64,000 bases of DNA from Liolophura sinensis (Eukaryota), in the NCBI RefSeq assembly GCF_032854445.1, contig NC_088295.1:32018510-32082509 (forward strand), given 5' to 3'. This document shows positions 1 to 64,000 of the stretch, one piece after another (the first letter of the stretch is position 1; each line of letters opens with the position of its first letter). A model generated the notes under the pieces. That model made no database searches, was not told where the DNA came from, and saw only the letters and a program-made list of their open reading frames with translations. Both the position numbers and the translations under genes were made by a program.

Positions 1-765
1 ATAAACACAGCAAAAGCTGGAAAATAGTTTATGCACATCCCTTTTACGATAATGGTTTTACCGGTGTTAATTGAATATTGATTTTATATATATATATTTT
101 GTTTTTGCAATCATTACATGTACATTATGTGTCACTAACAAGCACCACCCAGCCCTGCCAAACCTACCCTATTCAACTACATCTAGAGGAAGCTCAACAC
201 AAACCCTTATCCTACATGTACAAAACAACGACAGCTCACCTAAACAGGCTTGCTGCCAGGAGGCTTGATCTACGTGTAGACATTATCCTAGCTGACCACC
301 ACTGATTGTCACATTTATCATCGCATGTTTCACCCGCGACTAAAGTTGTCTGGAATCCCCATCACACAGCTCCACACAGCTCACTTGTCCACACATTTCA
401 CAGAGAGCTCTTGCATCCAGCTATTTAGGACGCTATATTTCAATTACAGTATTTTTACCTCAAATTCTGACCTTGACCAAGACACTGATTTTGCCTGACT
501 TTAAGAATTGTTTTCCGTATTAAGGCTTGTTTTTGATAAGCAGATATCTGGCTAAATTCTGAAGCAAATATTTTTTTATTTTACTTTTATTTTTTCATGA
601 GAATTCTTAGAGTAAAAACTCTACCTTTCTGTTCAGGACAAGTGACACAGGCCACTTCACCACATAGTCAAAGGAAAAGGACTCCAAGCCTGAGAGATGT
701 AAATCTGTCGGGTCAATTCTGTAATCTGAAAGACAGCAAGAGAAACACATCAATTTATATCCATT

Positions 766-35500: not shown

Positions 35501-37543
35501 CTGGTTTAGCTGCAGCTTTGTGACAGGAAATTTGTCATGTGCCTGGCTAGGGGTTCCATTTGGACCCTGTCTGATTTCATCCACCTTAAAACCTGACTGC
35601 TGTAATTAACATAAACAAAAATTGAATACACCGTTTTGATTTAAAACAAATGAATAAAATAAAATACTTGGTAATACTTTTTAGTTTGTAGTAAATACAT
35701 GATGAAAATTTATCTTTAGGAAAAGCAGCAGTTCTTTTCTTTGGAATATTATGCATAACATGTTATTTTGTTCTGTACTTTCTTTTGATCCCTGTATTTT
35801 TAAACAACAGATTTTTTACGATGGTAAAGCAGAGGGTATCTGTGTATCGGATGAAAATCATTCAAACTGGATGAGGTTTGTGAAGCCTGCTCGGGCCTCA
35901 GAGGAGCAAAATGTGGTGGTATATCAGCAGGGGAGAGAAATCTTCTTCAGCACATGTAGAGATCTGATGCCAAACCAAGAACTGCTTCTCTGGTATTCCA
36001 AAGATTATGCCAAAGCCCTGGGTAAATAGTATTGCAGAAATATTTGTCACATCATTTACAAGACTTTTCATATGATTAGAAGAAAATTAACTTTACTTGC
36101 ATTGTTATTGGATGAGGAAACCAATGATATTTACATTTTTTATAAAAACATTGCATCCTTCATTCAATATCAAAACCTTTTTCCATAATTCTGTATAAGG
36201 GAAATATTGAATATGGCATGAAACTCCAATTAAATAAATAAATAAGCTCATTATCAGATCTTTTAAAGAATGAAAGAGAAACCATATGCATTTTGTAATG
36301 CAGCAGGCATAGTTACAGTTAGTTCACAAAATTTGTAAAATAATTAAAATGAAAATTATTGCAGAAAACTGTAGCAAGGCCAGTCCATAATTGCCTATAT
36401 ATACATGCCACTTTGGTCTATCAACTAGGTATGCCATCAATGCCTGGAACCATGGCTACGTGTAATGTTTGCTCCAAGTCCTTTCCAAACACCAAGTGCC
36501 TGGGTCAACATGTGAAGTACTCACACCCGGACATGTCAACACGAAAGTATAAGTGTGAATACTGTGGACGTGGGTTCAATTCCTCCTCCAAGCTGAAGAG
36601 CCACGTTTTGAGTCACCTGGGAGTCAAGCCTTACATGTGTGCACAGTGTGGGAAGAAGTTTACAGAGAAGCCTAATTTAACCAGACACATGTTCATTCAC
36701 ACAGGTATGACACAGCCCTCAAGGCAGATCTAGGGTTATTAATGAATTTGGTCCGATGAATTTAATATGAATCATGGGCTGCAAATGTATGTGCGTAAAT
36801 TTTTTCCGTTTTCAAAATGTACAAAACATGGACCAATTACTTGCAATACTGAACACGTTGGAGGAACAGTCATATAGGGCCTGTCATTGTGAGAAATTAT
36901 CTTTTGTAACATTTAGTTTCATGAAATTGATTAAATTATCAATCCCAGTTAATAACTAAACATACAGAACAGTACACAGTTCATACATGTTGTTATGTGT
37001 AGATGTGTTGTACTGGTAATGCATCATAGTGTTTGTATTTTGCATCCAGGAGAGCGTAAATTTGCCTGTGAGGTCTGTGGACGAGGTTTCAGGCAGAAGG
37101 CCCACCTACAGTCGCATATCCTGGTCCACACAGGAGAGAGAACCATACGCTGTCGATACTGCGAAAAGCTATTTGCTCGCACCTCTGACCTCAAGCAGCA
37201 CGAGTACCAGCACACCAAGGAGAAAGTTTTCACATGTCCACATTGTAACAAGGTCTTCTACAAACTACAGAACTTCAAAAAACACTCCAAAATTCACTCG
37301 GGACAAAAGGACTACCCGTGTCACCAATGTGAAAAGTGTTTCTTTACACGATACCATATGAAACGCCACCTACAGACTTGTAAAGGAACTAAGGGTCATT
37401 ATACCTTAGGCCCAGAGGATCCTGAAATTGTGGCCCTGAACATGGACCATTGCGCAGCATCTTGTGAGGAGGTACCCACTCCTCCTGACCCTCCTAGCCA
37501 TAACCAAAAACGGACTAAAGTTAAAGGAAAAGGGAAAAAATAG
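29525..37543 (+). CDS. PRDM-family transcription factor, about 857 aa, with a PR/SET domain and 7 C2H2 zinc fingers. CDS join(29525..29717, 29999..30148, 30725..30805, 31893..32645, 33308..33451, 33760..33915, 35296..35411, 35811..36021, 36429..36704, 37050..37543). Additional 5' exons are possible.
   Basis: PR domain is split over two exons: VWTKSFMSSHTVFGPVIGEPKSAHECDKEKKPNFFTWK | IFYDGKAEGICVSDENHSNWMRFVKPARASEEQNVVVYQQGREIFFSTCRDLMPNQELLLWYSKDYAKAL. It carries the PRDM hallmarks (FGP.(I/Y)GE, NWMR(F/Y)V, EQN(L/V), ELL(V/L)WY). The exon before it encodes a Cys-rich knuckle, CVECCSSSESPCKVHEC. Seven C2H2 fingers follow, with HTGE(R/K)-type linkers (CNVCSKSF..H, CEYCGRGF, CAQCGKKF, CEVCGRGF, CRYCEKLF, CPHCNKVF, CHQCEKCF), ending at the TAG at 37541-37543. 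Upstream exons encode low-complexity P/S/T/Q-rich sequence. Splice phases close over all 10 exons, and the total length is divisible by 3. Which PRDM paralog this is remains unresolved. The zinc-knuckle + PR + C-terminal finger layout suggests a PRDM4/10/15-like member, as a hypothesis only. Confidence 0.75.
30405..30650 (+). mobile_element. copy of a second, unclassified interspersed repeat family, about 230 bp
   Basis: Shares about 75% identity with 38850..39065 (...CATTGT(A/G)AAGAGGTTTTAATTTTG(A/G)C...AAATG(A/G)CT.TGGAATC...). Confidence 0.55.
33955..34615. repeat. minisatellite, about 11 copies of an about 60 bp unit (ATGCATGTACTAATTATCTGTCAGCTCCAATATGCCAGGTACCTAT...)
   Basis: Direct tandem repetition with point variants. 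Lies in the PRDM intron between exons 33760..33915 and 35296..35411. Confidence 0.9.
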
Positions 37544-43391: not shown

Positions 43392-43650
43392 TATTATTTA
43401 TTTGATTGGTGTTTTACGCCGTATTCAAGAATATTTCACTTATACCACGGCGGCCAGCATTATGGTGGGAGGTATCCAGGCAGAGCCCGGTGGAAACCCA
43501 CGACCATCCGCAGATGGCTAGCAGACCTTCCCACGTACGGCCAGAGAGGAAGCCAGTTTGAGCTGGACTTGAACTCACAGCGACCGCATTGGTGAGAGGC
43601 TTCTGGGTCAATACGATGCGCTAGCACGCTAACCAACTATGCGATTTATA
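43392..43650 (-). mobile_element. full-length SINE copy
   Basis: matches family consensus. Confidence 0.9.
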
Positions 43651-47121: not shown

Positions 47122-49662
47122 CGTCTATAGTTCAGTGAGTTGTACAAAATAACTGCCCCACCTTCTCATCCATGTACGTGTAGATGGCTGCCCGGATTAC
47201 AATCTCCTGGGACCTTGGGGTTGTGCCTACATGCCTAAGTGCTTCGGAGACTCAATGTGTCCAGCAGGGCAGCAGTGTTGTCCCCATCCATGCGGAAATC
47301 AATGTGCTGCAATAGGTATATCATCATACTTTCTTTTACTTACTAAAATCAATGTCAAATCAATGATCGACTGAAGTTCCGGCTTTCATTATGAACACAT
47401 CTGAATTATATTCTTAAGCATTTTCAATTCAGGTTAAATTTTCCGAAGTCATATTCTGTCGTCAACATAATATTTATTTAGACGAGTTTATCATATACGT
47501 ACCATGCACGATAAGCATGGGAACCTGAAACCAAACAAAAACGGCATGTCAACTGAGAAAATCATACACCTCTGTGTTCCGAAGATTCCGTGATGTCCAT
47601 TCTTGTGCCTTTAATCTGCTTGATTTCAATTGGTCGGCTGAGTTATGAGGTTTGTCGTACACAGCTTGCAAAGGGCGGTGGAATACTCCGGAAACACTGG
47701 ATTCCACAATGCACCCACAAACTCCACCACCATATAGGTGAAAACTTCCACAGTAATGTATTAAACGCCAGTCAAAATAATAAGACCTGTAATACAAACG
47801 TCAAAGGGAAAAGCATTTTCTTATCCATTCCTGATAGTGCACTGCAAATCCCTAAACTGTGGTAAAGTTTGTCCCCATGGGTACGAGAGAGGAGCGGATG
47901 GATGTCAGACTTGCCATTGTCGTGACAGTGAGTTATCATATCTGTATACAATAACCTCTGGTGTTTGATATATAATCCTTTCTTTGAAAGTCACAAATTA
48001 AATTTTGAATACTCTAGAAACTAATCTAAGTTACCATAATATAATGTTTTCTGAGTGACGCTGGAACAGATGTGTGTTACATTCATGTAATATAATATTA
48101 TGTTTTCTAAGTGACGCTGAAAAAGTTGTATGTTACAGTAATGTAATATAATATTATGTTTTCTGAGTGATGCTGTAATAAATGTGTGTTACAGTAATGT
48201 AATATAATATTATGTTTTCTGAGTGACGCTGAAATAAATGTGTGTTACAGTAATGTAATATAATATTGTGTTTTCTGAGTGACGCTGAAATATAAGTGTG
48301 TTACAGTAATGTAATATAACATTATGTTTTCTGAGTGATGCTGGAATAAAATGTGTGTCACAGTAATGTAATATAATATTACGTTTTCTGAGTGACGCTA
48401 GAAAAGATGTGTGTTACAGTAATGTAACACAATATTACGTTTTCTGAGTGACGCTGGGATAGATGTGTGTTACATTAATGGAATATAATATTATGTTTTC
48501 TGAGTGACGCTGGAATAGATGTGTGTTACATTAATGTAATATAATATTATGTTTTCTGAGTGACGCTAGAATAGATTTGTATAATATAATGTTTTCTGAG
48601 TGACACTGGAATAGATGTGTGTTACATTAATGTAATATAATATTATGTTTTCTGAGTGACGCTGGAATAGATGTGTTACAGTAATATAATATAATGTTGT
48701 GATGAACACAATACACAGTACATTAACAAAAGTATTTCTGTTGGAATAAGTTTGTCAAATATAACATATCAGTTTTAGCATAGTCTATTCACCCAGAACA
48801 CATATTATCCTGTCCGTTTCATTTATGTATATTTGAGAGAATGACTAACCGCCTATTAATTACTCCTTCACCATTGTATTCTTCCCTGTTGACTGATCTA
48901 ATTATCTAATTATAATTGCTCTTTATTTTTTGTTTTTTTGTGTGTGTAGAGTCAAAGTGCACAACGGTATGTATAAATTGCTATATAAGTTTAGTAGAAA
49001 CAATTAATTAACTTGGATTTTGAGTCTTTACATTTGTCAGTCTACGATATAAGTACATTCCAGGTTCATAAAACAAGCTTGTGATTATTTTCCATATATA
49101 TATTGTTTCAAATACAACGATAGGTTTCCGAGACAGACCCTTTAATTGCGTGAACCACATTATAGCCCTTACCAATGTCTTGTCATGTCTAATGTTTAGC
49201 AACATATGTAAATAAGTCTTTTTCTTACATTCCACAACATCGGGAAATGCTGTGAGGCTCTCATTTTACAGAAAATTACAAATTTCTTGATGTGTTTCCA
49301 AACTTTATATCGATTGATTTCATAAAACAGGCCACCATGATAGAAGTGAAAAATCTTTAATATGGCTTTAGACAACTTTCAAATAATAATAAAATGCGAC
49401 ACAGATATGTGATCATTCCTTCAACTTAATTTCAGTTCCAGTGCTTACTGCAGAATACAAACCTCCTCGAAGGAAAGTAGAGCTTCTCGATGCATTTGGA
49501 TTTGAACCGATGAATAAAGCATATAAATTTGAGCAAGAATTTGCGCATTTTTCAATTTATACATTTGATGAAGATTTAACACCGATGATAAGCTGGAATA
49601 TTTCACTTTTGTTGCAATTGCTTGTTAAGTATACGTGGGTGAGGGAAGTCGACGAGGAATAA
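45395..49662 (+). CDS. secreted small cysteine-rich protein: signal peptide + WAP four-disulfide-core domain + antistasin-like 6-Cys domain + acidic C-terminal tail, about 168 aa. CDS join(45395..45461, 47184..47315, 47838..47927, 49437..49662)
   Basis: Exon 1 is MSCLSHILLAVTVLVLTVNAVR, a hydrophobic signal peptide, followed by a GTAGGC donor. Exon 2 is DGCPDYNLLGPWGCAYMPKCFGDSMCPAGQQCCPHPCGNQCAAI, with the 8-Cys WAP pattern including the CC and C-G..C signatures. Exon 3 is VHCKSLNCGKVCPHGYERGADGCQTCHCRD. Exon 4 is IPVLTAEYKPPRRKVELLDAFGFEPMNKAYKFEQEFAHFSIYTFDEDLTPMISWNISLLLQLLVKYTWVREVDEE then stop. Phases are 1/1/1 throughout and close. Acceptors are cgtgtag, ctgatag and tttcag; donors are GTAGGC, GTATAT and GTGAGT. 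Confidence 0.6.
46885..46980 (-). ncRNA. tRNA-like sequence (tRNA-Val-like anticodon region CCTCACC and intact T-arm CTGGGATCAAACCCAGG): tRNA pseudogene or head of a different SINE family
   Basis: Minus strand reads GGCCAAATAGTTAGAGCGTCCGCCTCACCGTGGGGAGACCTGGGATCAAACCCAGGTCA. The anticodon stem is not complementary, so it is unlikely to be functional. Confidence 0.3.
47037..47120. repeat. compound (CA)n(TA)n microsatellite
   Basis: acacacacacacacacacacacacatatatatat...; lies in intron 1 of the WAP gene. Confidence 0.95.
48035..48700. repeat. minisatellite, about 11 copies of an about 60 bp unit (GTAATATAATATTATGTTTTCTGAGTGACGCTGGAATAGATGTGTGTTACA...)
   Basis: Direct tandem repetition. Lies in the intron between WAP-gene exons 47838..47927 and 49437..49662. 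Confidence 0.9.
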
Positions 49663-51243
49663 GATTTAACCCATATGGTTATTTTTAAGAGACCGAAAGT
49701 GTATTATTCGTAACAGTTGCGGAGCCTTCAAGTAGAACTGATTAAACAATCAAACCATGTGCAAGATTTGATATTGTCTCTAATACGTCATTACTTGGCC
49801 ATCAGACTGATAACGTGGTAGGCCAGGAAGTGGAAGGTGTGGTGTGAGCTCAATGCATATGTGACCAAGCGGGACGTGATATCCTAAACATGGCATTTCA
49901 GTGATGCAGGTATGCTGACGCTGGGCCTTCTACAAGGAGACGCCATCATGATATGGGACACAAATAATTTTTGGTATACGTATATAAAAGCTGATGAGTC
50001 AGGACGCACGCTTATGTGTGTGTATATGGTATAACAATTTCTTTATTGCAAACTCAAGATCCATATATAAAAACATTCTACAAAACAGATGGAGATTAGC
50101 AGGATATTTATTTCAATAAAAAATAACCAACATAATATTATCGGAATGTTTGATTCAAACACTAGAAATTAAGTACAAACATATATTCACCATATCGCAT
50201 ATGCTGCTGTAAGTTTATGGTCGACATGGTGAAAAAAAAGTTCCATGATCTCCTCTTGACCGCCACAAGCAGAACGTAGTAAACAACATACGCAAAGCTC
50301 GGAGAGCTTTACCCATACGGATCAGACGCATGGATTTCTTTGTTATTTCCTTCGCCCCCTGACCATACTCTTCGTTGTATGTTACGAAGTTGTCTTCTCC
50401 CATGTTCGCGACAGGTTTAAGTGGATGACTGTTATCTGTTTCGCTCAGACCCTTACATTTGCGGATGTTAGATTTCGACTTGGGTTTCAACTTACCTTTA
50501 AGATACCTTTATCTTTTTTAACTTTGGTCTGAAATGGCACTAGATTTGAGCCTTTCCTAACTAGCACGTACAATTACAACATGTGTTCTGGTCAATCGTT
50601 CACAATAAAAAAATTTTGCCCTGGCACACAGTACAAGATTCTAGAGTGTCGACACGAAGAGTGTCCTCTCACAAGATAGCGCGCTGACGTTTTATCATAC
50701 GACACGTTTCGCTCGAAGCAAACAAACAAGTATACAGCTCTGAATGTTACTATAGCAACATACAACTTCACAACAATGATATAAGAAGAACTGAGATGGG
50801 AAAGATTTCTTTAATTTCTTTAGCATCCCCCCACAGTGTCCGTTAACTGCGGTGGTAAGGCGTTTTTCATGTGTTGAAAAAGGGAAGCTCTTGTCCCTTA
50901 AACAAAGGTGGAGATGACAAGCTCTATAGGTCGCCTTATAGTGGGATTGTGTCACTTATTCCAAATATTTGGTCTCAGTATTGTTAGCAAAATTTATCAT
51001 ACTATAACAATATACGGGACAGGCACGCCTAAGCAAAAATATTGTAGTCACTGTCGTTTTCGGCTTTTCGATTCGATCGAAGGAGTTCAGGCTTCAGATG
51101 TGTGCTTTATAATATTTCTAGTATTCCTTCTCATGTGGGAGTAATTACTATTTCTCATGTGTCAGTTTGCGTAAAACTCTTACGAACGAAATTGATTGGG
51201 AATTGGTTGGATATACTTTTCTGTTAAACGACGGACAGTTTTT

Positions 51244-51775
51244 CTAGACACGACAACGAACCTTCCCAAAAATCTCTTTTAGAAGTTTTCTGGTTGAGTC
51301 CCTGAAATCGGCATTCCGCAAAGTGTATATCAAAGTATTAAGTGCATGGGGCAAACGTGGACATACCGATGTGATTATGTACACAAGTCTGACATCCCAT
51401 CCTTTCATGACATTCGGAATAAGAAAAACAATGGCCAGGGGTAGCCAACCGATCACCATTGTCGCACAGATAACTAAAAACAGCCGAACAGACCTGGAAA
51501 GTTGCGCGGTTTTCTGATACTGTGACGACGACAGGTTTATTTCTCCACCCACTATGGTGCGGCGATTGTGCTCGTGTTTTCTGGCAATTCTTGAGATGTA
51601 AAAATACACGGTGATGACGCTGACGGCAACGGGCAACACGATGCCCATCACAACAAAGCTGTAAAAAGATATGGTGATTTCGTCTCTCCCGTTACAAAAG
51701 TTGATAAGGTCAGAGTGGCCTTTGCCTGTCGACAATCCATACAAAGGAGCAAAGCCTATTATCAAAGATCGCTAA
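51244..51775 (-). pseudogene. truncated GPCR pseudogene, 3' ~55% only (TM4 to C-terminus); near-identical duplicate of 60470..61040
   Basis: 173-aa ORF, MIIGFAPLYGLSTGKGHSDLINFCNGRD..., is about 95% identical to residues about 200-377 of the intact gene. Similarity extends into 3' flanking DNA (50540..51250 vs 60050..60470) and stops abruptly near 51775. The TM7 motif is mutated to HALNTLIYTLRN, losing NPxxY. Confidence 0.75.
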
Positions 51776-53080
51776 TAACATGAAACCAGGTTCCGACCTT
51801 AGGGTGCGTCGATATCTTTTCGCCCCTCCAGATTTGCCGTTGGTGAAAGCTAAGGCTAATGGTATGAAATGCTTTGGGCAGTGACAAACATCCGGATAGG
51901 GCCTGATGCAAAAGCTAATCATGATATCCACTATATGACACCACGATAATCTAGGCCTAGTGTATAAGCCTATAGTTTTCTAGGATAAGATATATACACG
52001 AAAAGACAGTGCCCTTTATATTCAGAGAAGCCACGACAATTTAAAAGATAGTCGTGCTTTACTATGTACGCTATCTTACGGCTAAGGCCTAGGGCTACTT
52101 GATATAGCTCTCTCAGAACTCAAACTTTTAATTTATCCAAACATTATTATAATATTTTATATCAAATTTCAAAGAGGTTTTTTGATATGGTTTATCTTCA
52201 GCCAAATTAGCCAACAAAGATTTCCAGCCATCGTAGATCTATACGCCTATAGGCCTGTCAATCAATAATTGTATGACGCCAAACTGCAGCTAAACTCACA
52301 TCTTTTATGTCTTTGCAGTTCAAACATGAAATTTAGTGACAGAAAATGTCATATATTTGCCGAAAGAAGTCCGCACTTTACATTCATATTACGTGTACGT
52401 ATGCCAAAGACCTATATGGAAGTCGCCTCAAAAGCCAGCTGAATATGTTACCAGAACTAGTTGGGCAAGTGCGAAAAGGCCCGGCTGTCTTGCACCGTCT
52501 TAAGATAGTAACAGCTATTGAAACCTTCAGTGTAAAGGTATCTCCCCATTGGTACCTGCTAAAACCGTTCTGTTCTCAGAGGTCGCCAAACTTCTAAAGA
52601 TGTTCAGAACAATCCCAATTTCAAGTGCTTCTTTAGAGAGATCATTTCCAAATCTACGCAGGTTGAAAACATACTTGCGTTCAACAATGGCTCATTCTTG
52701 ACTAAATGATCTAACACTGATTCATTGCCACAAAGATCTTGCTGACAAAATTGATTAATTGGGGAGTGTGAATGACCGAAAGAAATCTCTGTTTTTGTAC
52801 ATTTCTAAACTCCATTCAAGTTCTGATTCATTTTAGATTCAGTTTCATCTAATATTTTATTTGGCGTTTTGGTTTGCTGCTTGCTTGGTTTTTAATGCCT
52901 GATAGTATTGTAGCTGTATATAACGATGGCCAGCCAGTTACGGTGGAAGGAAACCTACACTACTTGGCAAGCTACACTAGCAGGCTTTTCCACGTAAAGT
53001 CAAGGCAGAAGTCGGCGTGAACCGAATTCGGGCCCGTTATCCCACAAGTGGGAGTCTACAGTGATACGTATTTATTTCTT

Positions 53081-53228
53081 TGATTTGTACTTTACGTCGA
53101 ACTCAGAATATTTTACTTATACGACAGTGGCCAGCATCATAGTGGGAGGAAACCGGGTAGACGCCCGGGAAATCCACGGCCATCCGCATGTTGCTGGTGA
53201 AACTTCCAACGTACGGCAGTGATCCGTA
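53081..53228 (-). mobile_element. SINE copy (partial)
   Basis: matches family consensus. Confidence 0.75.
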
Positions 53229-53321
53229 GGCGAGCGCCTAGACTACTTGACCAACAAAGGCATTGTCATTAATTGGAATTACACTTTAAGTTACCGTCAT
53301 AATATTTTCTTCTGGAACCAG

Positions 53322-53575
53322 GGGCCTCCGTGGCTCAGTCGGTTATCGCGCTAGCGCAGCGTAATGACCCAGAAGCATTTCACCAATGCAGTCGCTGTGA
53401 GTTCAAGTCCAGCTGACTTCCTCTTCGGTCGTAAGTGGGAAGATCTGCAGCAACCTGTGGATGGTCTTGGGATTCCCTCGGGCTCTGCCCGGTCTCCTCC
53501 CACCATAATGCCGTCAGCCGTGGTATAAGTGAAATATTCTTGAGTACGGCGTGAAACAACGATCAAATAAATCTC
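53322..53575 (+). mobile_element. full-length SINE copy, forward
   Basis: GGGGCCTCCGTGGCTCAGTCGGTTATCGCGCTAGCGCAGCGTAATGACCCAG... Confidence 0.9.
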
Positions 53576-53579
53576 CTGG

Positions 53580-53836
53580 GACGTGTAAGTATTGATTTTA
53601 TTTTGTTGATTTTATTTCATTGATTTTAATTATTTATTGATTTATTTATTTTATTTATTTGTTTATGTATTTATTTATTTATTGATTTATTTATTTGATT
53701 GGTGTTTTACGCCGTACTCAGGAATATTTCACTTATACCACGGCGGCCAGCATTATGGTGGGAGGAAACCGGGGAGAGCCCGGGGGAAACCCACGACCAT
53801 CCGCAGGCTGGTCAGAGACCTTCCCATTTACGGAGG
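53580..53836 (-). mobile_element. SINE copy (3' part) with expanded (TTTATTTA)n tail, tail-to-tail with the preceding copy
   Basis: matches family consensus. Confidence 0.8.
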
Positions 53837-54149
53837 AGGATTTCACTTTAATGCCACGTTTGTACCAAAAGTATGTGAATGAAGGATATAGAAACCTAAA
53901 GTAAGTCATTGTTTTTCAATTTTAATTATCCCACCTCAAATATTAATAAATGAGAAGCACTGGATGTACATTACTCCTTGAGAAAGTAGTAGTATTTGGG
54001 TCGCTTTCTTCAAGTCTATTTGATAAAGGTTTTGATTCAAGTCCCATATCATTGCCTAAGGGTCTAACTGATGTAAACATATATTCAGGATATAACTTGA
54101 AGTGAATCCACCCAACCAAATTGCTGTTAAAAATTTTTTTTATCTTGGT

Positions 54150-54420
54150 TTATCTATTTATTTATTGATGTATGTATTTGGTGTTTTACGCCGTCTCAAC
54201 AATATTTCACTTATACGACGATTGCCAGCATTATGGTGGGAGAAAAGCGGGAAGAGCTCAGGGGAAACCCACGATCATCCATCGTTGCTGGAACTTCCTA
54301 ATTACGGCCAGGGAGCAAGCCAGCATAAGCCGGACTTGAACTCACGGCGACTGCAATGGTGAAAGGCTCCTGGGTCATTACGCTGCGCTAGCGCGCTAAC
54401 CATCTGAGCCACGGAGCCCC
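54150..54420 (-). mobile_element. full-length SINE copy
   Basis: matches family consensus. Confidence 0.9.
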
Positions 54421-54734
54421 CAACAAATTTCACCTGAGTTCTGTAAAACTCAGGTGAAATTCATGTGCTGATTTTTTTTAAAGCTATGTGACATGTAAGA
54501 GATAAGCATGCATGATAAAATGCTTCTTCCTGTCTCCATTTGCCGGTATTAGGTTGAAGGATTCATTTCGATTTAGCATTTTGTGGGAGTTTCCCAGTAA
54601 GAAGATTCAAATTTATTTTCAACTGTTTCAGAATGCAAAAATAATAAAGTTTGAAACAAATGTAACACCAGCGAAATAAAACCAAATACAATGTCACAAT
54701 GCCCACAAGGTGTGTGAGTGATACTGCCGGGCTC

Positions 54735-54950
54735 ATACGCGCCAAGCACAAATCTAAAGAGCCAATGGGTTGCTGTGAGTTCAAGTGCAGCTCATGCTGG
54801 CTTGCTCTCCGGCCGTGCGTGGGAAGGCCGTGGGTTTCCACGTGCTCTGCTCGGTTTTCCTCCCACCATAATGCTGGCCACCGTGGTATAAGTGAAATAT
54901 TCTTGAGTACGGCGTAAAACATCAATCAAATAAATAAATCAAATCTAAAG
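54735..54950 (+). mobile_element. SINE copy, forward, 5' truncated
   Basis: matches family consensus. Confidence 0.8.
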
Positions 54951-55647
54951 AATCCGGATTTAGTTCTTGGTGAAGTCGCACCTAAGACAAAAAATAGGGA
55001 AGTTGCCGCTTCGTCGCTCACCATTATGGGAAAATAACAATGACTGCATGGTCACCGCGGTATAATGGACTGAGTGTCTTCCCCAATTCCTCACGCTGAG
55101 CCAGCACCTGACAAAAGAGAGGTGCAGTATATACAAATGACAGTACAAATCACAAATGACACTAGACATTTTCCGCTCTTGATTTTGAGGGTTTCATTTT
55201 AGTGGCTTAACATCGATCAGAATGCGTCTCCGGACATCTGGGTGCGAGGGGCTTCCGGGGCTAAGTCGGACCCGGGATCGTTTCCTAACAGTTGGCTGTG
55301 ATAGTTCATCCACTCTCCCCGCTCTCCCAACCCCAGGTCAAGACAGCTTCCGACGCCCATGTAATGTAGCATTAGAGCAGACAGGGTATAGTAAGCAGTA
55401 ATTTTCTGTTAATCAATGTGTCCTAAATTCAAACTTCCAAGCAATCCAAAACTCCATCTAAATGTATCAAATTTCCACAATTTTACCACCGTGTATCATA
55501 CACAGCACGCTCTGCTGTAAACGATATATATAGAGGAGACCGTCCATATACACAATTAAGCATTTAAGTGACTGAAAATATTAGAATACTTGTAATAACT
55601 TTATACTGCATGTAGGAAATTGCATGGAAAGCACGAAGTCCTGTAGC

Positions 55648-56688
55648 TTATGATCCGGAAGTACCACCAATGGACCAGTGCGCGGGATGGGAACCAGACT
55701 GTTCTTGAATGGTAGCTCGTTTTTCCTGAATACAACCACAGATCTTTCGATAAATCTGATGAAAAAGTTTCCTGGAACTGTTCCGGAACTCTCTGTTTCT
55801 TAAAGTAAATATCCAAGGGTTAACTGCATGAGGTACACCATACAGTGTATATGTCACTCTAAAAGCTGCAAGGATGTATTGGTCTGGAATTACATCGTAC
55901 ATTGCCAATAGGTGTGTAATTGCCAGAGGTACCCAAAAGATAACCATGGTGATGCAAATGGTTAAAAAAATTCGAACTGACTTGGAGAGTTTAGCAACTT
56001 TCTGATACTCTTGCATGTCTGATAATGACACAGACAGGGTACGATGAGTTACTTCATGTTTTCGGGCAATCCTTGAAATGAAGAGATAGGCAGAACAAAC
56101 CACTAGGACAACCGGTCCAAGTACGCACAGAAAGATTAAGTTAAAAAACAACATGCTCACTTGAGCACGGCCTTGGCAATACACCACTGTTCTGTGATGA
56201 TCTTTGCTTGTCACGCGGAAGACAGGAATAAAGCCAATCAACACGGCGACAGTCCAGATACATCCTATAGCCAGCAGAATCTTTCCCTTTGTCACAATCC
56301 ACTGGATATCTGAGAGGATATTTTAAAGCGATGAGACGGTCTAGTGTTGAAAACAGCACAGAAAAAGTAGACGCCATTGCTATCACGGTAGGGTAGCACA
56401 CAACCAATTCACAACCTGGAAGGTTATCATAAATCGCTGACCAAGTATGTCCTCCATAATACCGATCGTAAATAAAGCTGCTTGTATATCAGAAACCGCC
56501 ATGTTGATGGAGAATGCGTTCTGAGTATTCCTTACAGTCTTAAAGGAAGCAAAGGTCACAAGGACCAAAAGGTTGCCAAGTGTTGCTATTGCTCGAATTC
56601 CTATGGAAATGACTAAAAATGGATCTACACTGGAGGAGGTTACATTAAATGCATCGGAACTGTTAAACTCAGAATTGTTAAGATCCAT
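55648..56688 (-). pseudogene. full-length but frameshifted GPCR pseudogene, subtype II
   Basis: The coding region is spread over three overlapping frames. ORF 56383..56688 covers TM1-TM2 (MDLNNSEFNSSDAFNVTSS...ATLGNLLVLV...SINMAVSDIQ). ORF 56141..56407 covers TM3 (GCELVVCYPTVIAMASTFSVLFSTLDRLIALKYPLRYP). ORF 55648..56295 covers TM4 to the C-terminus (IVTKGKILLAIGCIWTVAVLIGFIPVF...IFWVPLAIT...HAVNPWIFTLRNREFRNSSRKLF). That implies at least two 1-nt frameshifts. One is a 7-nt-for-6-nt substitution just after LKYPLRYP. Confidence 0.7.
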
Positions 56689-58461
56689 TGAAGACTCTCG
56701 ACTTCTCTAACAAACCCACTGAGGTCTTGTATGCCTGAATCAGTGCGATCAAAATGTTTGTCCAAGCTCACCTGTTATGTTGGCATTTACGTGTTGTTAC
56801 GTATGAAATGCTTTTTCCAAACATTAAGAGTGTTTCAAAGCCAATTGCTATGTCAGCAGGTGGAGTACGTTAGCAACGATCGTCAAGGAAAAATCGAATA
56901 GATATAATTATCTATTCTGATGAAGCGGGACCCGGCTCAAGCCAATATTCTTATTCGTCATAAATTATCAGTGTAGGAAACGATCCACACTGAACACAAT
57001 GTACATGTATATACAGCAGGTTTTATGCCAGAGAGATTCAATCATAACACGCATTTTCTAAAAAGAGTCTTAATCACCATTGCATATAAAGCTTCTGACT
57101 TAGATTCTCCAAAGATATTCACCAACAATACGAAATAGCAGCTCTTCGTGTAGACATTCACCAGTCCGTAGAGGCTCCCTTGGGCCTCGATCGAGAATTC
57201 AAGGCAAGATCTGAGCTGTTGTGATGTTTGTCTCCAACTATTGGAAAAAATTGAAATAGAACTTTAAAATGAATCAAGGTTCTCAAATTTATAATAAGAA
57301 ATACTTTCATTTCTTTTTAAGAAAAGTTAAAATGCATCCAAATGTTGGAATTTTAAGATGGGCGCTATGGGCAGTATCCTGTACTGCCAATGTAAAGGAA
57401 GTATCGTCACATCAACTGTTTGTTCTCTACATTCATCTACAGGCCAAGTATTTTTGTGAACAGCTTAAGTAATCTTTTACACGTATGTTATAAGATGTAA
57501 TCCGACATTAAAAGCTGTGTGTACATCAAGAGTAGCTAGATATCGACTTTGTGCTTCATAACGCCCACCACAGGTTCAAGCATTCTCGTGTGAACAATAT
57601 AGGTAGTATAATTAAAGACGTATAGTATAAAGACGTACAAACCAGAGCAATGACGCCAGTGTGATAACTGGCATATGGTCTCATATAATCCTTGAAATAT
57701 AATCGCTTGCCAATTTACATCAGTCAGGGTTTTATTCTAACTGTTCAAATAGATGCATTAACAGTAACAAATTACACGTCCTCTATAGCACCATGACTTA
57801 TTCAGAATTGGTTACAGAATATGTAGTGGTATTCAGTGCAATTTATTATATATCACTTGTCTAGAATTACTCGAAATGCTGTGTCTCATCACATTTAGCA
57901 TACAATAACATTAAAGCAATACAAAGGGACCAGGTCTCGTGGATGCTTAATACACCAGTAGAATCCCTGTCGGTGCAGAAATACAACATAATTAAACACG
58001 TACTGCACAGAGAGCAGAGTCAATAGTTTGATAGCTGGAGAATGGTCCCACGCAATCGGTAAAAAACGGATTCTTGTCATTTTAGCTCAGTCAGGGTTTA
58101 ATGTCAACTCTATGAAAATGTATAAATAGTATTAAAATTATACGAGCTCTAGCACCAAGGTTTAAACAGAATTAGGTAAAAGTCAGTAGTGTTGATTGCA
58201 ATTTATTATACGTCACTCGTCTGGAATGGGCAGACTACTCCTATGCATAATTTAGGTGGAAATCCATTCTAATTGATCGACTTAAAACGCATGTATGAAA
58301 AGTCATGGAAAGAAACCGTCTGTGACTTATACTGGGAAAGTGCTACCAATGACTCACTACGCAGGACCAGAAAGAGCATGTTCTTGAACAGTAGCTCTCT
58401 TTCTCTGAATAATTATGTGTACCTTTCCATAAATCTGTTGAAAAAGTTTTATAGAAGGTTA

Positions 58462-58960
58462 TCAGAATTCTCTGTTTCTTAAAATGAATATCCAAATGTT
58501 ATTTGCGTGAGATATAGCATATAATGTATTCGTCAGTCTGAGAACGGTAAGGATGTGTCGGTGTAGAATGGCATAATACATTAATAAAAGGTATGCTATT
58601 GCCAGTGGTATCCAACAGATAGCAATGGTGACGCAGATGATTAAGAAGAGTCGAACCGACCGGGAAAGTTTTGCAACTTTCTGATACTCTTCCATGTTTG
58701 AGGTGGACATAGACAGTGTACGATGAGTTACTTTGTGTTTTCAAGCAATCCATGAAGTGTAGAGATATGCAAAACAAACTACTACAACTGGTCCAAGTAT
58801 ACCGATAACAGCAGCACGAATAGACAGCGTTATATGACAGTTGCATTGACAACAGACCATTGTCACAACAGGAATCAAACCAGTCAGCAGAGCGACAGTC
58901 CAGATGCATCCTATAGCAAGCAGAGTCTTACCCTTTGTCACAATCATTGGATAGCTGAGA
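58462..58960 (-). pseudogene. truncated, frameshifted GPCR pseudogene fragment, subtype II, TM4 to C-terminus
   Basis: ORF pieces MIVTKGKTLLAIGCIWTVALLTGLIPVV... and ...MSTSNMEEYQKVAKLSRSVRLFLIICVTIAICWIPLAIAYLL...ISHANNIWIFILRNREF are homologous to 55648..56300. NPxxY is degraded to NNIWIF. Homology to the N-terminal half ends near 58960. Confidence 0.7.
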
Positions 58961-59526
58961 GGATTTTTTAATTTCTGGCTAAACTCACCTTATTCATGGT
59001 GCAAATATGTTTATCTTTGAATTGTTTTGCCAGCAGGCTTAATACAGCTGTATTAAAGCGATATCGCTACACCATGAAGTGATATGATCTCCTCCTGATT
59101 CATTATTGTGAAATTATCAGTCTAGGGCATTTATCTACTGAACTGAAAAAATACAATCCATTTTATGCCGGAATTATGCACTAGCATTCAGTTCATGTGC
59201 CTGCTGGCATACGGACTATGTGGCAAGTCACTATGAAAACCCAATCTTCAAATGAGTCGTTCTCTTAGAACAATTTGTACTAAACAAATGTGTCCTCAGA
59301 TCCCAGTTTTGTCCAAAACACCCAGCCGTAAAGTGTCGCTCGATCCATTCGTGCCGCCTTACTACAGAAATGTCCAGAAATATATTTGAAGTGAAATAGC
59401 GTCATTGAATAAAATGTATACTGTACAAACCTGTACGTAAACTCAACACTTGAATCCACAAATTTCCTAATCTCCAGCCTAATCAAAACGATATTTATTC
59501 ATGCTTTGATTCATCTGTGCAGAACA

Positions 59527-59715
59527 GATCACACCAATGCGGTGGTTGGAGTTCGAGCCCAGCTTATGCTGGCTTACTGTACGGCTGTACGAGGGAAGGT
59601 CTTTTAGCAACCTGCGGATGGTTGTAAGTTTTTCCTGGACTCTGTCCGCTTTCCTCCCATCAATATGCTGGCATATATGTATGGCATAAAAATTAATCAA
59701 GTACACAAATAAATG
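59527..59715 (+). mobile_element. SINE copy, forward, diverged
   Basis: matches family consensus. Confidence 0.7.
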
Positions 59716-60469
59716 TTTGTGCCTTGTTTTGATGACTTCATATTTGCCCTATTGGTTCATAAAGCCATACTTAAGGAATTTCCAACTACACCCTGGATTT
59801 TATGGGTGGCGGAACCCAGAATGTCTGGGGGTAAACTACTTTGACAAATAAATACTTCCCCAACATGAAGTAAAACAACTACAGTAGCAAATATGTACTG
59901 CAGAGTTATATATACGTGGGATGAAACACCGTTGAATGTTATTTTCCGTTATGCATGCAACAATAAACTGTTAAAAATTATCACTTACTGGTCTAAAGAT
60001 TGGAGATAAAAGTTGTTCGGGAGAAATTTACCAGTCGCTAGATAATTTAATTGCTTTGATATTTCCTTTAATGCAATAGCACGTACAATCACAACATGTT
60101 TTCTGGTCAATCGTTCACACTGAAATAGTTTTGCCTCGGCACACAGTAAAACGTTTTACAACATTTTTCAACTGACTGTTAACATGAGCTGGAAACTCAT
60201 GTGTAACAATTAAGAAAGAAACACTTCCCTAGGTAAACAGTGATCCCAGAGTGTGGACACGAAGACTGTCCTCTCACTAGATAGCTTTTAGAAGTTTTAT
60301 CATACGCCATGTTACGCTCCCAGCAAGCAAACAGGTATAGAATTCTGAATTTTACTATGGCAACCCACAACTTCATAACAATGATGTAAGAAGAACTGGG
60401 ATGGAAAAAGGTATTCCTACTCATACTGGAGTAATTACTATTTCTCATGTGTCAGTTTGCGTAAAACTC

Positions 60470-61483
60470 TTACGATGAAATTGATTGGGAATTAGTTGGA
60501 TATACTTTTCTGTTAAACGACGGACAGTTTTTCTCAAGACAACAACGAACCTTCCCAAAAATCTCTTTTAGAAGTTTTCTGGTTGAGTCCCTGAAATCGG
60601 CATTCCGCAAAGTGTATATCCAAGGATTAAGTGCATGGGGCAAACGTGGACATACCGATGTGATTATGTACACAAGTCTGACATCCCATCCTTTCATGAC
60701 ATTCGGAATAAGAAAAACAATGGCCAGGGGCAGCCAACCGATCACCATTGTCGCACAGATAACTAAAAACAGCCGAACAGACCTGGAAAGTTGCGCGGTT
60801 TTCTGATACTGTGACGACGATAGGTTTATTTCTCCACCCACTGTGGTGCGGCGATTGTGCTCGTGTTTTCTGGCAATTCTTGAGATGTAAAAATACACGG
60901 AGCTGACGCTGACGGCAACGGGCAACACGATGCCCATCACAACAAAGCTGTAAAAAGATATGGTGATTTCGGCTCTCCCGTTACAAATGCTGATAACGTC
61001 AGAGTATCCTTTGCCTGTCGACAATCCATACAAAGGAGCAAAACCTATTATCAGCGATACTATCCAGATGAAAACAGCAGCTAATATAGCTTTCCTGTTT
61101 GTCACAAACTGAGGATACCTCAATGGGTATTTCACAGTGAACAATCGGTCAAGGCTGGAAAACAACACGGACAGCGTAGACGTTATTAAGAGTATGCTGG
61201 GATAACAAATGTATAAGTCACATCCCAGTATAGGTTTGCCTCGATTCACAAACTCCATGGGTTTGAAAGCTGAATGAACAAACCCGCCCGCCTGGATGTC
61301 TGAGAGGGCCATGTTGACAGAGAAGACGTTTTGCGGAGTTCTCAGGGTCTTCCACACTGCAAAGTTCACAAGAACTAGCAAGTTACCTAAGACGGTTAAA
61401 ACTTGTATAATGACGAAAACCGACATTGACGTAACATTGTTTGTGTCCGTTAAATTCCCGATATCCGAATCGTTAATGGTCAT
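60470..61483 (-). CDS. class A (rhodopsin-like) orphan GPCR, intronless, intact; 337 aa from Met61483. The upstream in-frame ATG at 61603 would give 377 aa.
   Basis: A single uninterrupted ORF. N-terminus has N-glyc sites (NDS, NLT, NVT). TM1 is VFVIIQVLTVLGNLLVLVNF (GN). TM2 is NVFSVNMALSDIQAGGF (LSD). The TM3 Cys is followed by SSLDRLFTVKYP (DRY-type DRL). TM4 has W (AAVFIWIVSL). TM5 has P (VVMGIVLPVAV). TM6 is ATMVIGWLPLAIVFL (WLP). TM7 is HALNPWIYTLRN (NPxxY). Cytoplasmic tail is FRDSTRKLLKEIFGKVRCC. There is no Asp at position 3.32, so it is not aminergic. Confidence 0.8.
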   Translation of the reverse strand: MTINDSDIGNLTDTNNVTSMSVFVIIQVLTVLGNLLVLVNFAVWKTLRTPQNVFSVNMALSDIQAGGFVHSAFKPMEFVNRGKPILGCDLYICYPSILLITSTLSVLFSSLDRLFTVKYPLRYPQFVTNRKAILAAVFIWIVSLIIGFAPLYGLSTGKGYSDVISICNGRAEITISFYSFVVMGIVLPVAVSVSSVYFYISRIARKHEHNRRTTVGGEINLSSSQYQKTAQLSRSVRLFLVICATMVIGWLPLAIVFLIPNVMKGWDVRLVYIITSVCPRLPHALNPWIYTLRNADFRDSTRKLLKEIFGKVRCCLEKNCPSFNRKVYPTNSQSISS

Positions 61484-62509
61484 AGTGCTCAAGAATTTGC
61501 CAAAAAGGAACGAATAACGGCTGCTAGATCTCAGCAGTTGTGATCCTTGTTTATCAGTCGTTACTTCTGAATGGCCATGCATATATATGTACAATATGTA
61601 CACCCAACTTCGTTTGACGTTTGAGTATACGTGATGAAAATCGCTGGCTTGATTCAGTAGATCTTCACATGAAATACTAAATCTTCGTGCAGAAATTCCG
61701 CAAGTCAGTTCTGGAAATTCTAGCTGTTGTTTCTAAAGATTTGCTAATCCTACCTTTACACTAACCATGAAAACTATAAAGAGCAGAACAAAATGAATAG
61801 CTTCCTAACAGTCTTGAGGTACGACATTGTGATATGTGAAACTCTGGTGCACGAAGGTCGTCAGTGGTAATACTACTATTTGTAAACTTCCACGGCAGCT
61901 AACCTGTGTTTGCTAAGCTTCTCTGCTCGTGTCAGGTACGTTTTCATATCAATAGGACTTACATGTCTAAATTGCTGAACGTATGGGATACAATATTTGT
62001 CCGTAACATCTCCTATATTGACAACACACTTTACAATTCAGCCGCTCAATGCTTAGAAATACACCTTTAATTTCAGAATGACATGGTTGCCACACGTGCA
62101 ACTGGAAAATCAGCATAACATGAAACAGCGGGTGATGGCCGGATAGTCCTTATCATCCCCTGCCATCCCCAAATGTCATTTAATGTAGGTGATTCATGCA
62201 TGAACGTTAGCTCAATGAGTGTAACTGTCAGCGCATATCCATTAGACAAAGTAAACGTGGTTTTCTGGTATAAGACTCAAGTGCCTTACAGAGCTGCTCC
62301 CTAATGCCACACTCCCGTTGAACTAATATTTTCTCATTGCAATATATGCCTGCAGCAGTGTACGGTACACAATATGTTTCCGTCATGTGTAGATTTTAAT
62401 GTGGTTAAAAAAACGTCTATGTGAATTTTTGCATCTTCTTGCAGTGATGAATATTATAAACTGTCTAAATTTAAAATTTATGGAATGAAAATGAAAATGA
62501 ATACCACCA

Positions 62510-62630
62510 GCCTGCGAACTGTCGTGGGTTTTCTCCCGGCTCTACCCGATTTTCTCATACCATGATGCTAGCTTCCCTCGTATATGGCGTAAAAGGCCAG
62601 TAAAATTAATAAATAAATAAACCATTACTG
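62510..62630 (+). mobile_element. SINE copy (3' half), forward
   Basis: matches family consensus. Confidence 0.7.
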
Positions 62631-62885
62631 AGTTGTGGAATGAGCCTGTGGGATGAGCCTGTAGAATTTTGTTCGAATCAGACTCTGCTTGTTTCGATCG
62701 CGGCTTTAAGTCAGTGGGTGTGCCAGGTACTTTTCTCCACCGGTTAGCCTAACTGTCGTCATATAGGCGAAAGTAGATGAGGAGAGAATTGGCAAACAGG
62801 TGATGTATCAAATAGGTCGAAAAATAATATTTTTTACAATTTTGAAACATATACTATACGAGTGTATATGTGTTTACAATAAACT

Positions 62886-62916
<31 letters not shown>

Positions 62917-62920
62917 GGGG

Positions 62921-63082
62921 TGCTCCGTGGCACAGTTGGTTAGCGCCCTAAAGCAGCGTAATGACCCATGAGCCTCTCACCAATGCGGTCGCTGCTGAGT
63001 CCAGACGTATGTGGGAAGGTCCTGCACCAACCTGCGGATGGTCGTGGGTTTCTCTGCCCGTTTTTTACCCACCATAATACAA
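62921..63082 (+). mobile_element. SINE copy (5' two-thirds), forward, preceded by (GT)n(G)n
   Basis: matches family consensus. Confidence 0.75.
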
Positions 63083-63582
63083 TAAACTGTCAATTTTGGT
63101 ACCGTTATAGATCCAAATGAAATTGCCCAAATATTCATATCGGTCAATTTGATGCAGTTTTGCACCCTTTCAAGTTCTGATTTAATTTAATTTATACTAA
63201 TGCCAAAACATGCATGCGTTACCAATGCATACACGTAAACGCCTACATATACAAAAAAGGACTTTTTCACACAGTATTAATAGATAAACCATTGCCACTG
63301 TAGCATTAAAACAGACAGTGTGTAGTAAACAGTAGTTTGTTGTTGATCAATGTTCAAAATTCAAATTTTCAAGAAGTCCAAACTTCCAACTAAATGTATC
63401 AGAACGCCACAAATTCACCACACTGTATCATACAAAACATGTTCTGCTGTAAACAATATAAGTAGAAGAGACCATCCATATACACAATTAAGCATTTAAG
63501 TGACTGAAAATACTAGAATATTTGATGTAATAACTTTATACTGCGTGTAAAAAATTGCATGGAAAGCATGAAGTCCTGTAGC

Positions 63583-64000
63583 TTATAATTGGGAAGTGCA
63601 GCCAATGGACCAGTGAGCAAAACCGGGACCAGACTGTTCTTGAACGGTAGCTTCCTGAATACAACCACAGACCCTTCGATAAATCTGAAGAAAAAGTTTC
63701 CTGGAAGTGTTCCGGAACTCTATGTTTCTTAAAATGAATATCCCAGGGTTAGTTGCGTGAAGTATGGCACACAGTGTATTTGTCACCCTGAAATTGCCAG
63801 AGATATCCAACAGATAACCATGGTGACGCAGATGATTAAAAATATTCGAATTCGATTTTGGAGAGTTTAGCAACTTTCTGATACTCTTTGCATGTCTGAG
63901 CATGAAATAGACAGGGTACGATGAGTTATTTCGTGTTTTCAGGCAATCCTTGAAATGGAGAGATATGCAAAGAAAACTACTAGGACAGTTGGTCCAAGTA
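63583..64000 (-). pseudogene. GPCR pseudogene, subtype II, with internal deletions; continues beyond window end
   Basis: C-terminal ORF ...TNTLCAILHATNPGIFILRNIEFRNTSRKLFLQIYRRVCGCIQE plus flanks align to 55330..56110. A segment equivalent to about 55860..55940 is missing, and upstream TM6 is out of frame. Confidence 0.65.

Follow-up and report, generated by a model that had tools for sequence, protein, structure and literature searches.

A 64,000-nucleotide (nt) stretch of Liolophura sinensis contig NC_088295.1, hereafter the window, contains five head-to-tail copies of rhodopsin-like (class A) G protein-coupled receptor (GPCR) genes, of which one is intact and four are broken. We interpret this cluster as very probably one end of a tandem array in which single-exon class A GPCR paralogues undergo birth-and-death evolution. 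In this array one copy of subtype I (I-b) would be live and the others (I-a, II-a, II-b and II-c) relics, left by the duplication of a segment with a subtype II gene ahead of a subtype I gene and by subsequent gene conversion. The five loci are as follows, TM denoting transmembrane helices, ORF an open reading frame and dN/dS the ratio of nonsynonymous to synonymous divergence.

51187-51789, minus strand: I-a, 5'-truncated subtype I pseudogene (DNA and frameshift-aware alignment to I-b).
55648-56688, minus strand: II-a, full-length subtype II copy (translation, frameshift-aware alignment, comparison with II-b).
58402-58971, minus strand: II-b, 5'-truncated subtype II pseudogene (tblastn and alignments).
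60470-61483, minus strand: I-b, intact single-exon class A GPCR gene, 337 amino acids (ORF, Pfam 7tm_1, motifs, dN/dS).
63583-64000, minus strand: II-c, subtype II pseudogene, visible from TM5 to the stop (tblastn and alignments).

The window is DNA of eukaryotic, metazoan type with a GC content of ~38%. All five loci belong to the class A family (Pfam 7tm_1) and lie on the minus strand, at 51.2, 55.6, 58.5, 60.5 and 63.6 kb. A tblastn search of the window with the I-b protein recovered the five with E values of 0, 1.6e-118, 4.6e-60, 1.6e-29 and 2.6e-15 and no further GPCR relic with E<0.1 in the 64 kb; a subtype II query gave the same picture. Pfam 7tm_1 also matches the larger fragments of the broken copies, including the C-terminal part of II-a (48.9 bits), and the two subtypes share ~45% protein identity. 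An earlier note on this DNA, which had described five minus-strand loci of two subtypes with a set of motifs for each, is borne out by tblastn and Pfam, and the motifs it quoted are present in the sequence. The spacings it gave, ~9.2 kb between the I copies and ~7.9 kb between the II copies, measure 9226 and 7935 nt, and its account of one intact and four disabled intronless class A copies in tandem agrees with the Pfam, tblastn and frameshift-aware results. Lesions were read from frameshift-aware protein-to-DNA alignment together with DNA alignments, and each of I-a, II-a, II-b and II-c carries a disabling lesion relative to an intact paralogue, as pseudogenes do.

The intact gene, I-b, runs from an ATG at 61483 to a stop codon at 60470-60472. 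Its start codon was picked by alignment with the start of protein P0001, the product of an orthologous gene on a 4.7-kb Logan contig (L001). The frame is also open upstream of the chosen ATG (61484-61603, minus strand), where an extra in-frame ATG at ~61582 would lengthen the protein by 33 residues; we kept the shorter form because the called start of the orthologue aligns with 61483. I-b matches Pfam PF00001 (7tm_1) over the whole profile (positions 1-260 of 260) with 102.8 bits (cut-off 30.5) and E=2.8e-29, and the alignment spans TM1 to TM7. The class A microswitch set is complete: GN33-34 (1.50), LSD60-62 (2.50), GC(88)DL (C3.25), DRL112-114, FIW(140)IV (W4.50), C167 in extracellular loop 2 (ECL2), VLP(188)V (P5.50), GWLP249-252 and NPWIY286-290, the variants being DRL for DRY and GWLP for CWxP. 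Three N-x-S/T sequons occur in the N-terminus, as fits an extracellular position, and hydropathy peaks cover TM1 and TM3-TM6. An AlphaFold2 model, run with a shallow alignment, is unreliable in three dimensions and usable for its helix pattern only (mean predicted confidence, pLDDT, 40.7); DSSP assigns it seven helices (14-46, 50-73, 94-117, 130-155, 170-214, 224-258 and 268-291) and a helix 8 at 295-319.

Two flanking regions belong to this gene, UTR denoting untranslated region.

61484-62066, minus strand: I-b upstream region, probably 5'UTR and promoter (conserved with L001).
59965-60469, minus strand: I-b 3' flank, of which 60077-60408 is common to I-a (three-way alignment, blastn).

Collinearity between L001 and I-b extends from ~540 nt upstream through the gene into the 3' flank; L001 positions 1843-3366 align to window positions 62066-60498 with 77.7% identity over 1594 nt, including the ~540 nt 5' of the ATG. 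Between I-b and L001, dN is 0.131 and dS 0.435. The resulting dN/dS of 0.30 against a collinear orthologue indicates purifying selection, at the moderate level common among receptors that evolve fast, and gives substance to the earlier claim that this copy is intact. I-b most likely encodes a working receptor. From its motifs, the product would have a glycosylated extracellular N-terminus, seven helices, a disulfide between C3.25 and ECL2, D2.50, a DRL variant of E/DRY, GWLP in place of CWxP, NPWIY and a helix 8 with a Cys-Cys pair, and it would couple to a heterotrimeric G protein when its ligand binds. Position 3.32, counted from C3.25 to D3.49 and R3.50 in GCDLYICYPSILLITSTLSVLFSSLDR, is Pro, hence the ligand would not be a classical amine.

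The family to which I-b belongs is rare. Its only close relative is P0001 (77% amino acid identity), and a close-homologue search with I-b returned P0001 and a weak Limulus match only. We scanned 1.84 billion cluster representatives exhaustively with HMMER (15 billion predicted proteins) and found 6643 class A relatives of I-b at E<=0.001 but one protein, again P0001, at E<=1e-30. P0001 was also alone in exceeding 34% identity to I-b, the next best match being 28% identical. Where the best distant clusters include named proteins, these are GPCRs, uncharacterised or with automatic names, from Owenia, Apostichopus, Acanthaster, Antedon and Ptychodera. A frameshift-repaired II-a query gave no match at all in this collection, so that, together with the I-b scan, no subtype II protein is on record there. 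I-b itself is absent by exact look-up from the collection, which does not include the proteins of the source genome, hence live II genes could still exist in that genome. The closest solved structures are the alpha1B-adrenergic, muscarinic (M1/M4), A2A, TAAR7f and H2 receptors (E 2e-19 to 1e-15, over TM1-TM7), which places the family in the alpha-group neighbourhood of class A. These searches indicate that the I-b family is orphan and lineage-restricted, and the HMMER scan supports the lineage-specific family proposed earlier.

L001 also has a segment (1-270, plus strand, frame 1), ~2.2 kb upstream of the subtype I orthologue, that reads PKHSLTHSYI*SV...YICVLMVIS*TPLVMSLVI...LINPDILSYKK and resembles the subtype II blocks KHEVTHRTLSV / ICITMVIFWVPLAI / VNPWIFTLRN in collinear order. 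This match is not significant (tblastn E=0.49; 21/100 shuffles reach the alignment score), and the segment may represent a dead II copy in the place that corresponds to II-c.

The four broken copies differ widely in their state of decay. I-a corresponds to I-b residues ~137/143 to 336, with a DNA identity of 94.9% over 669 nt. Its homology to I-b spans 50562-51789 and begins inside TM4, the N-terminal 136-142 codons being absent anywhere in the window. Its lesions are P287T and W288L, which change NPWIY to NTLIY, C315R, a premature TAG at 51246, 21 codons ahead of the normal stop, and a 1-nt indel near 51186. Polarised on L001, 14 changes are derived in I-a and four in I-b (p=0.03; six sites at the homology boundary are left out of these counts). 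The I-a changes comprise ten nonsynonymous and four synonymous (10N:4S), a neutral ratio. By this evidence I-a is a true, neutrally drifting pseudogene, a conclusion independent of any single base call.

Among the subtype II copies, II-b is the oldest, with a Kimura two-parameter distance (K2P) of 0.27-0.32 to II-a and II-c. It starts after the DRY position (~residue 117 of I-b), has stops at 58743 and 58464/58461 (three stops) and a deletion in ECL2, and reads NNIWIF. II-c runs off the end of the window and was judged on the part from TM5 to the C-terminus only; this part is interrupted by a TGA (63941), by no fewer than four frameshifts and by a ~55-nt deletion between TM6 and TM7, with NPGIF kept. 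The lesions of II-a are two indels only, 124 nt apart, one near 56422 and the other an extra G at 56298 (seen against II-b). Between them the frame is lost for 41 codons (TM3 and DRL), which brings four stops into view; nonsense substitutions are absent, and apart from the shift of frame DRL and NPWIF are preserved. The earlier note saw decay in all four broken copies and alteration of NPxxY among its signs: decay is evident in I-a, II-b and II-c, but II-a is not heavily decayed, and the motif is altered in I-a and II-b but kept in II-a and II-c. It had also proposed dN/dS comparisons between the copies, and the pairwise values among the II copies are 0.45-0.55 (0.53 for II-a and II-c), as would be expected if constraint was lost part-way.

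Evidence for a duplicated unit comes from the ages of the copies and of the following flanks.

50562-51186, minus strand: I-a 3' flank (alignments with I-b and L001).
55365-55647, minus strand: II-a 3' flank, homologous to the II-c flank at 63299-63582 (85.4% over 281 nt, K2P 0.165).
63299-63582, minus strand: II-c 3' flank, homologous to the II-a flank (alignment).

II-a and II-c differ at 60/412 coding sites and at 41/281 sites of the 3' flank (K2P 0.165 for each), while the distal 3' flanks of I-a and I-b differ at 38/242 sites (K2P 0.177). Statistically, the two divergences are of the same age (p=0.68). In both proposed units II lies upstream of I in the same orientation, and equal ages combined with the same order and orientation are what co-duplication predicts. 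The I-a/I-b duplication followed the split from the L001 species, since at 48 flank sites I-a and I-b agree with each other and differ from L001, and the flank distance (K) to L001 is 0.35-0.42. The flanks reported earlier as duplicated align with 84% (50562-50803 and 60077-60408) and 85% identity (55365-55647 and 63299-63582).

Several observations weigh against this history. The intervals 51790-55365 and 61078-63299 share only dispersed copies of a short interspersed element (SINE) in sensitive blastn searches (word size 7), hence duplication of a unit needs an extra deletion or replacement spanning exactly the interval between the homology blocks. The older II-b lies between the two units, a misfit with simple tandem duplication. 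Furthermore, the same CGA (Arg) codon of the SRIA-R-KHE motif is TGA in II-b (58743) and II-c (63941), II-a (56065 region) keeping CGA. Informative sites in TM5-TM6 of the II alignment (26 uniting II-a and II-c, 21 II-b and II-c, 15 II-a and II-b) describe a nearly equidistant, star-like relationship, whereas those in the C-terminal tail and flank (82, 11 and 12, respectively) make II-a and II-c clear sisters. The shared TGA and the star-like TM5-TM6 are not explained by a simple (b,(a,c)) tree alone; parallel CpG mutation with past helix constraint, or conversion between II-b and II-c, could each account for them. Polarised counts do not separate II-a (16N:10S) from II-c (15N:7S), and both II-a indels could be assembly errors. 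The two-gene-unit duplication is hence partly supported. Of the I+II pair duplication envisaged in the earlier note, the equal ages, order and orientation stand, but the units share no intergenic DNA, II-b lies between them, and the subtype I tract proved far younger than the event proposed.

The main rival holds that there was no two-gene unit and that the I fragment and the II gene were duplicated in separate small events of similar age. The homology blocks are indeed short (~1.2 kb for I, at least 1.3 kb for II) and parted by unrelated sequence (3.6 kb between II-a and I-a, 2.2 kb between II-c and I-b), and this account has no difficulty with the position of II-b between the units. It leaves the equal K2P values and the like order and orientation in both places to coincidence, however, and the interval missing between I-a and II-a holds transposon material, as expected after deletion and insertion.

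52549-52701, plus strand: relic of a hAT transposase C-terminal dimerisation domain (Pfam PF05699, E=2.5e-5, 24.4 bits, cut-off 21.4).
53069-54942, both orientations: cluster of tRNA-derived SINEs between I-a and II-a (sequence comparison).

The hAT relic sits 760 nt beyond the truncation point of I-a, and the 1.9-kb SINE cluster accounts for much of the extra length of the I-a/II-a interval. We consider separate events possible, though rather unlikely, and retain the duplication of a II+I segment.

A second alternative concerns II-a, which might be functional if its two frameshifts were assembly or consensus errors or a segregating null allele; the cluster would then have two live genes, one per subtype. 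II-a retains its full length and none of its 345 codons has become a stop by substitution, where at least one stop is expected after purely neutral drift of K/2 ~0.08. It keeps its N-terminal glycosylation sequons, DRL, ECL2 Cys and NPWIF, the net length change of the two indels is divisible by three, so that they affect 41 codons only, and the dN/dS to II-c is below 1. On the other hand, neither indel lies in a homopolymer of more than two bases (contexts ATGATAACCTTCC and CCAGTGGATTG), and the second, compared with II-b, is a clean insertion of one G. By the derived counts given above, II-a has not evolved more slowly than the clearly dead II-c, its coding divergence from II-c equals that of the flank, and the 15 billion predicted proteins include no subtype II protein. 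We regard a live II-a as unlikely, and II-a as a relic like the other II copies.

The subtype I pair has a more complex history than its flanks. I-a and I-b differ at only 19/521 coding sites (K2P 0.037) and 6/119 sites of the proximal 3'UTR (K2P 0.052), hence this tract is ~4x younger than the distal flank of the same pair (p=1.4e-8). The gap persists when only synonymous sites are counted (8/137; p=0.005 against the distal flank), so selection does not account for it. Within the I-a flank, 51121-51186 belongs to the young tract and 50562-50803 to the old distal flank, whereas 50804-51120 is an ancestral segment kept in L001 and lost from I-b, whose 3' flank lacks ~318 nt at 60410/60411 relative to I-a and L001. 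The step in identity coincides with this 318-nt segment. Conversely, ~90 nt kept in I-b and L001 are absent from I-a. As each copy keeps a segment shared with L001 that the other has lost, I-a was not copied recently from I-b in its present form. We favour an older I duplication followed by non-allelic gene conversion or ectopic exchange over at least 670 bp, which would have ended at the 318-nt heterology. The I-a/I-b similarity used in the earlier note thus reflects this later exchange and not the original duplication, the tract being far younger.

The same data bear on the idea that I-a is a recent partial duplicate of I-b, made without conversion, and that the distal flank diverged through faster local mutation or was misaligned. 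An identity of 95-96% over 669 nt and a sharp 5' end would suit such an origin. It is very improbable, however, given that synonymous sites and proximal UTR diverge as little as the rest of the tract beside the distal flank (p=1e-8 for the tract, p=0.005 for synonymous sites), the reciprocal retention of the 318-nt and ~90-nt segments, and the break in identity exactly at the heterology. Hardly credible, finally, is an origin of I-a and II-b as processed pseudogenes of intronless mRNAs mobilised by long interspersed elements (LINEs), which we rejected: both are 5'-truncated, as retrocopies usually are, and their intronless parents make intron loss useless as a test, but there is no A-run at the 3' homology boundaries (50562 and ~58280), I-a homology continues for ~680 nt beyond the stop codon, in collinear order with genomic flank that L001 conserves, and both copies sit inside the parental array in its orientation.

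The order of events that we infer from this analysis would begin with an old split that gave subtypes I and II, after which II-b diverged from the ancestor of II-a and II-c (K ~0.3). Following the split from the L001 species, a segment with II and then I would have been duplicated (K ~0.17), giving the pairs II-c with I-b and II-a with I-a. Loss of the II-a/I-a interval together with the 5' third of I-a would have come next, with hAT and SINE material filling the gap. Non-allelic conversion or ectopic exchange presumably made I-a and I-b alike over at least 670 bp (K ~0.04) and halted at the 318-nt heterology. I-a may have drifted neutrally from then on, losing NPxxY and its C-terminus, and the two indels of II-a would be the most recent changes.

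Elsewhere in the window, the tRNA-derived SINE is ~250 bp long, starts GGGGCCTCCGTGGCTCAGTCGGTTA and ends ...GTATAAGTGAAATATTCTTGAGTACGGCG. At least 30 copies occur in the 64 kb in both orientations, those beyond 53069-54942 at no fewer than 25 sites (e.g. 7472-7731, 43396-43638, 59532-59673 and 62918-63078). ARAGORN (tRNA) and Rfam scans of the window found nothing and did not call the SINE, and literature searches for its sequence and for SRR26493809, the accession of the L001 species, gave no match; we presume that it resembles mollusc SINEs. A multi-exon PRDM-like zinc-finger gene occupies 31898-37543 on the plus strand. Its best named relative is a partial Lottia gigantea protein with SET and zinc-finger domains (42%), and a Logan fragment (P0157) is 92% identical. 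Its parts are as follows.

31898-32671, plus strand: P/Q/S/T-rich ORF.
35751-36029, plus strand: PR/SET exon.
36359-36733 and 36995-37543, plus strand: C2H2 exons.

Two minisatellites were also found. The first, at 10547-11858, has a 23-bp unit (ACCCCAGCAAACACTGATGTATC) in ~56 copies with higher-order periods of 71-317 bp, and is the cause of the GC of 0.47 and strong strand skews in its 2-kb bin. The second, at 48036-48701, is AT-rich with a 56-bp unit in ~10-12 copies and lies 2 kb from where the GPCR cluster begins on the left.

The cluster adds one more independent example of birth-and-death evolution in invertebrate class A GPCRs, a small and legible one whose 13 kb preserve the traces of duplication, truncation, transposon infill, gene conversion and stepwise motif loss. 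I-b is an orphan receptor with a single known orthologue and no annotated relatives, and could be proposed for deorphanisation should the organism matter to ecology or aquaculture. Intronless tandem GPCR arrays rich in pseudogenes are the expected state of such families and the cluster opens no long-standing question; it is a real but ordinary case of a well-known kind of system.

Vertebrate olfactory receptor (OR) and trace amine-associated receptor (TAAR) clusters have intronless coding exons, same-strand tandem arrays and many pseudogenes, and undergo unequal crossing-over and local gene conversion. A birth-and-death model with conversion among tandem paralogues has reportedly been set out for such families by Nei and Rooney in 2005 and by Niimura and Nei. 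The present cluster resembles them in its intronless, same-strand tandem genes, high pseudogene fraction and probable local conversion, but there is no orthology, the TAAR7f match (E 2.4e-16) being a generic class A match. The aminergic and adenosine receptors of the alpha group share with I-b the best solved-structure matches over TM1-TM7. I-b differs from them in having Pro in place of Asp3.32, a short intracellular loop 3 and only 25-30% identity; identity as a biogenic-amine receptor was rejected for want of the Asp. Two nematode receptor families also matched I-b above their own cut-offs, Srsx (PF10320, 44 bits) and Srx (PF10328, 29 bits), and membership of either was rejected, as 7tm_1 is a far better, overlapping match.

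A chemoreceptor role for the family, which the earlier note called chemoreceptor-like, is suggested by analogy only, through the single exon, tandem array, pseudogenes and lineage restriction, hallmarks that do not define such receptors. With one homologue above 34% identity on record, and none for subtype II, subtypes I and II might be the edge of an undescribed receptor family that serves as the chemosensory GPCR repertoire of a poorly sampled invertebrate clade, with more live members beyond the 64 kb or elsewhere; we think this doubtful. A close parallel has been described in Aplysia californica, whose AcCRa/b/c are rhodopsin-like, chiefly single-exon candidate chemosensory receptors of 319-364 amino acids (Cummins et al. 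2009, PMC2700072). AcCR genes share one orientation and are spaced ~9-13 kb from each other; transposon (retroelement) remnants separate them, and pseudogenes with stops and frameshifts occur among them (PMC2700072). Our cluster is largely in agreement with this layout of clustered, same-strand, single-exon receptor genes, transposon remnants and pseudogenes. The receptors themselves differ: I-b reads LSVLFSSLDRLFTVKYPLRYP, without the ERC signature, and shows no significant relation beyond class A. Membership of the AcCR family was rejected, the signature F/WITAF(I/V)TFERCLCIA (ERC motif) being absent from both I-b (SSLDRLFTVKYPLRYP) and II-a (STLDRLIALKYPLRYP). Expression in sensory tissue has been shown for AcCRs (PMC2700072). 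The sea-urchin surreal-GPCRs and the ApORs of crown-of-thorns starfish are lineage-specific, rapidly expanded tandem families whose best matches are of aminergic type (PMC5442662, citing Raible et al. 2006). With identities of at most ~29%, subtypes I and II belong to another subfamily, and their array is tiny and mostly dead. Like the echinoderm families, however, they are lineage-specific, tandem, rhodopsin-like GPCRs, and several of the best distant matches of I-b are echinoderm or hemichordate GPCRs.

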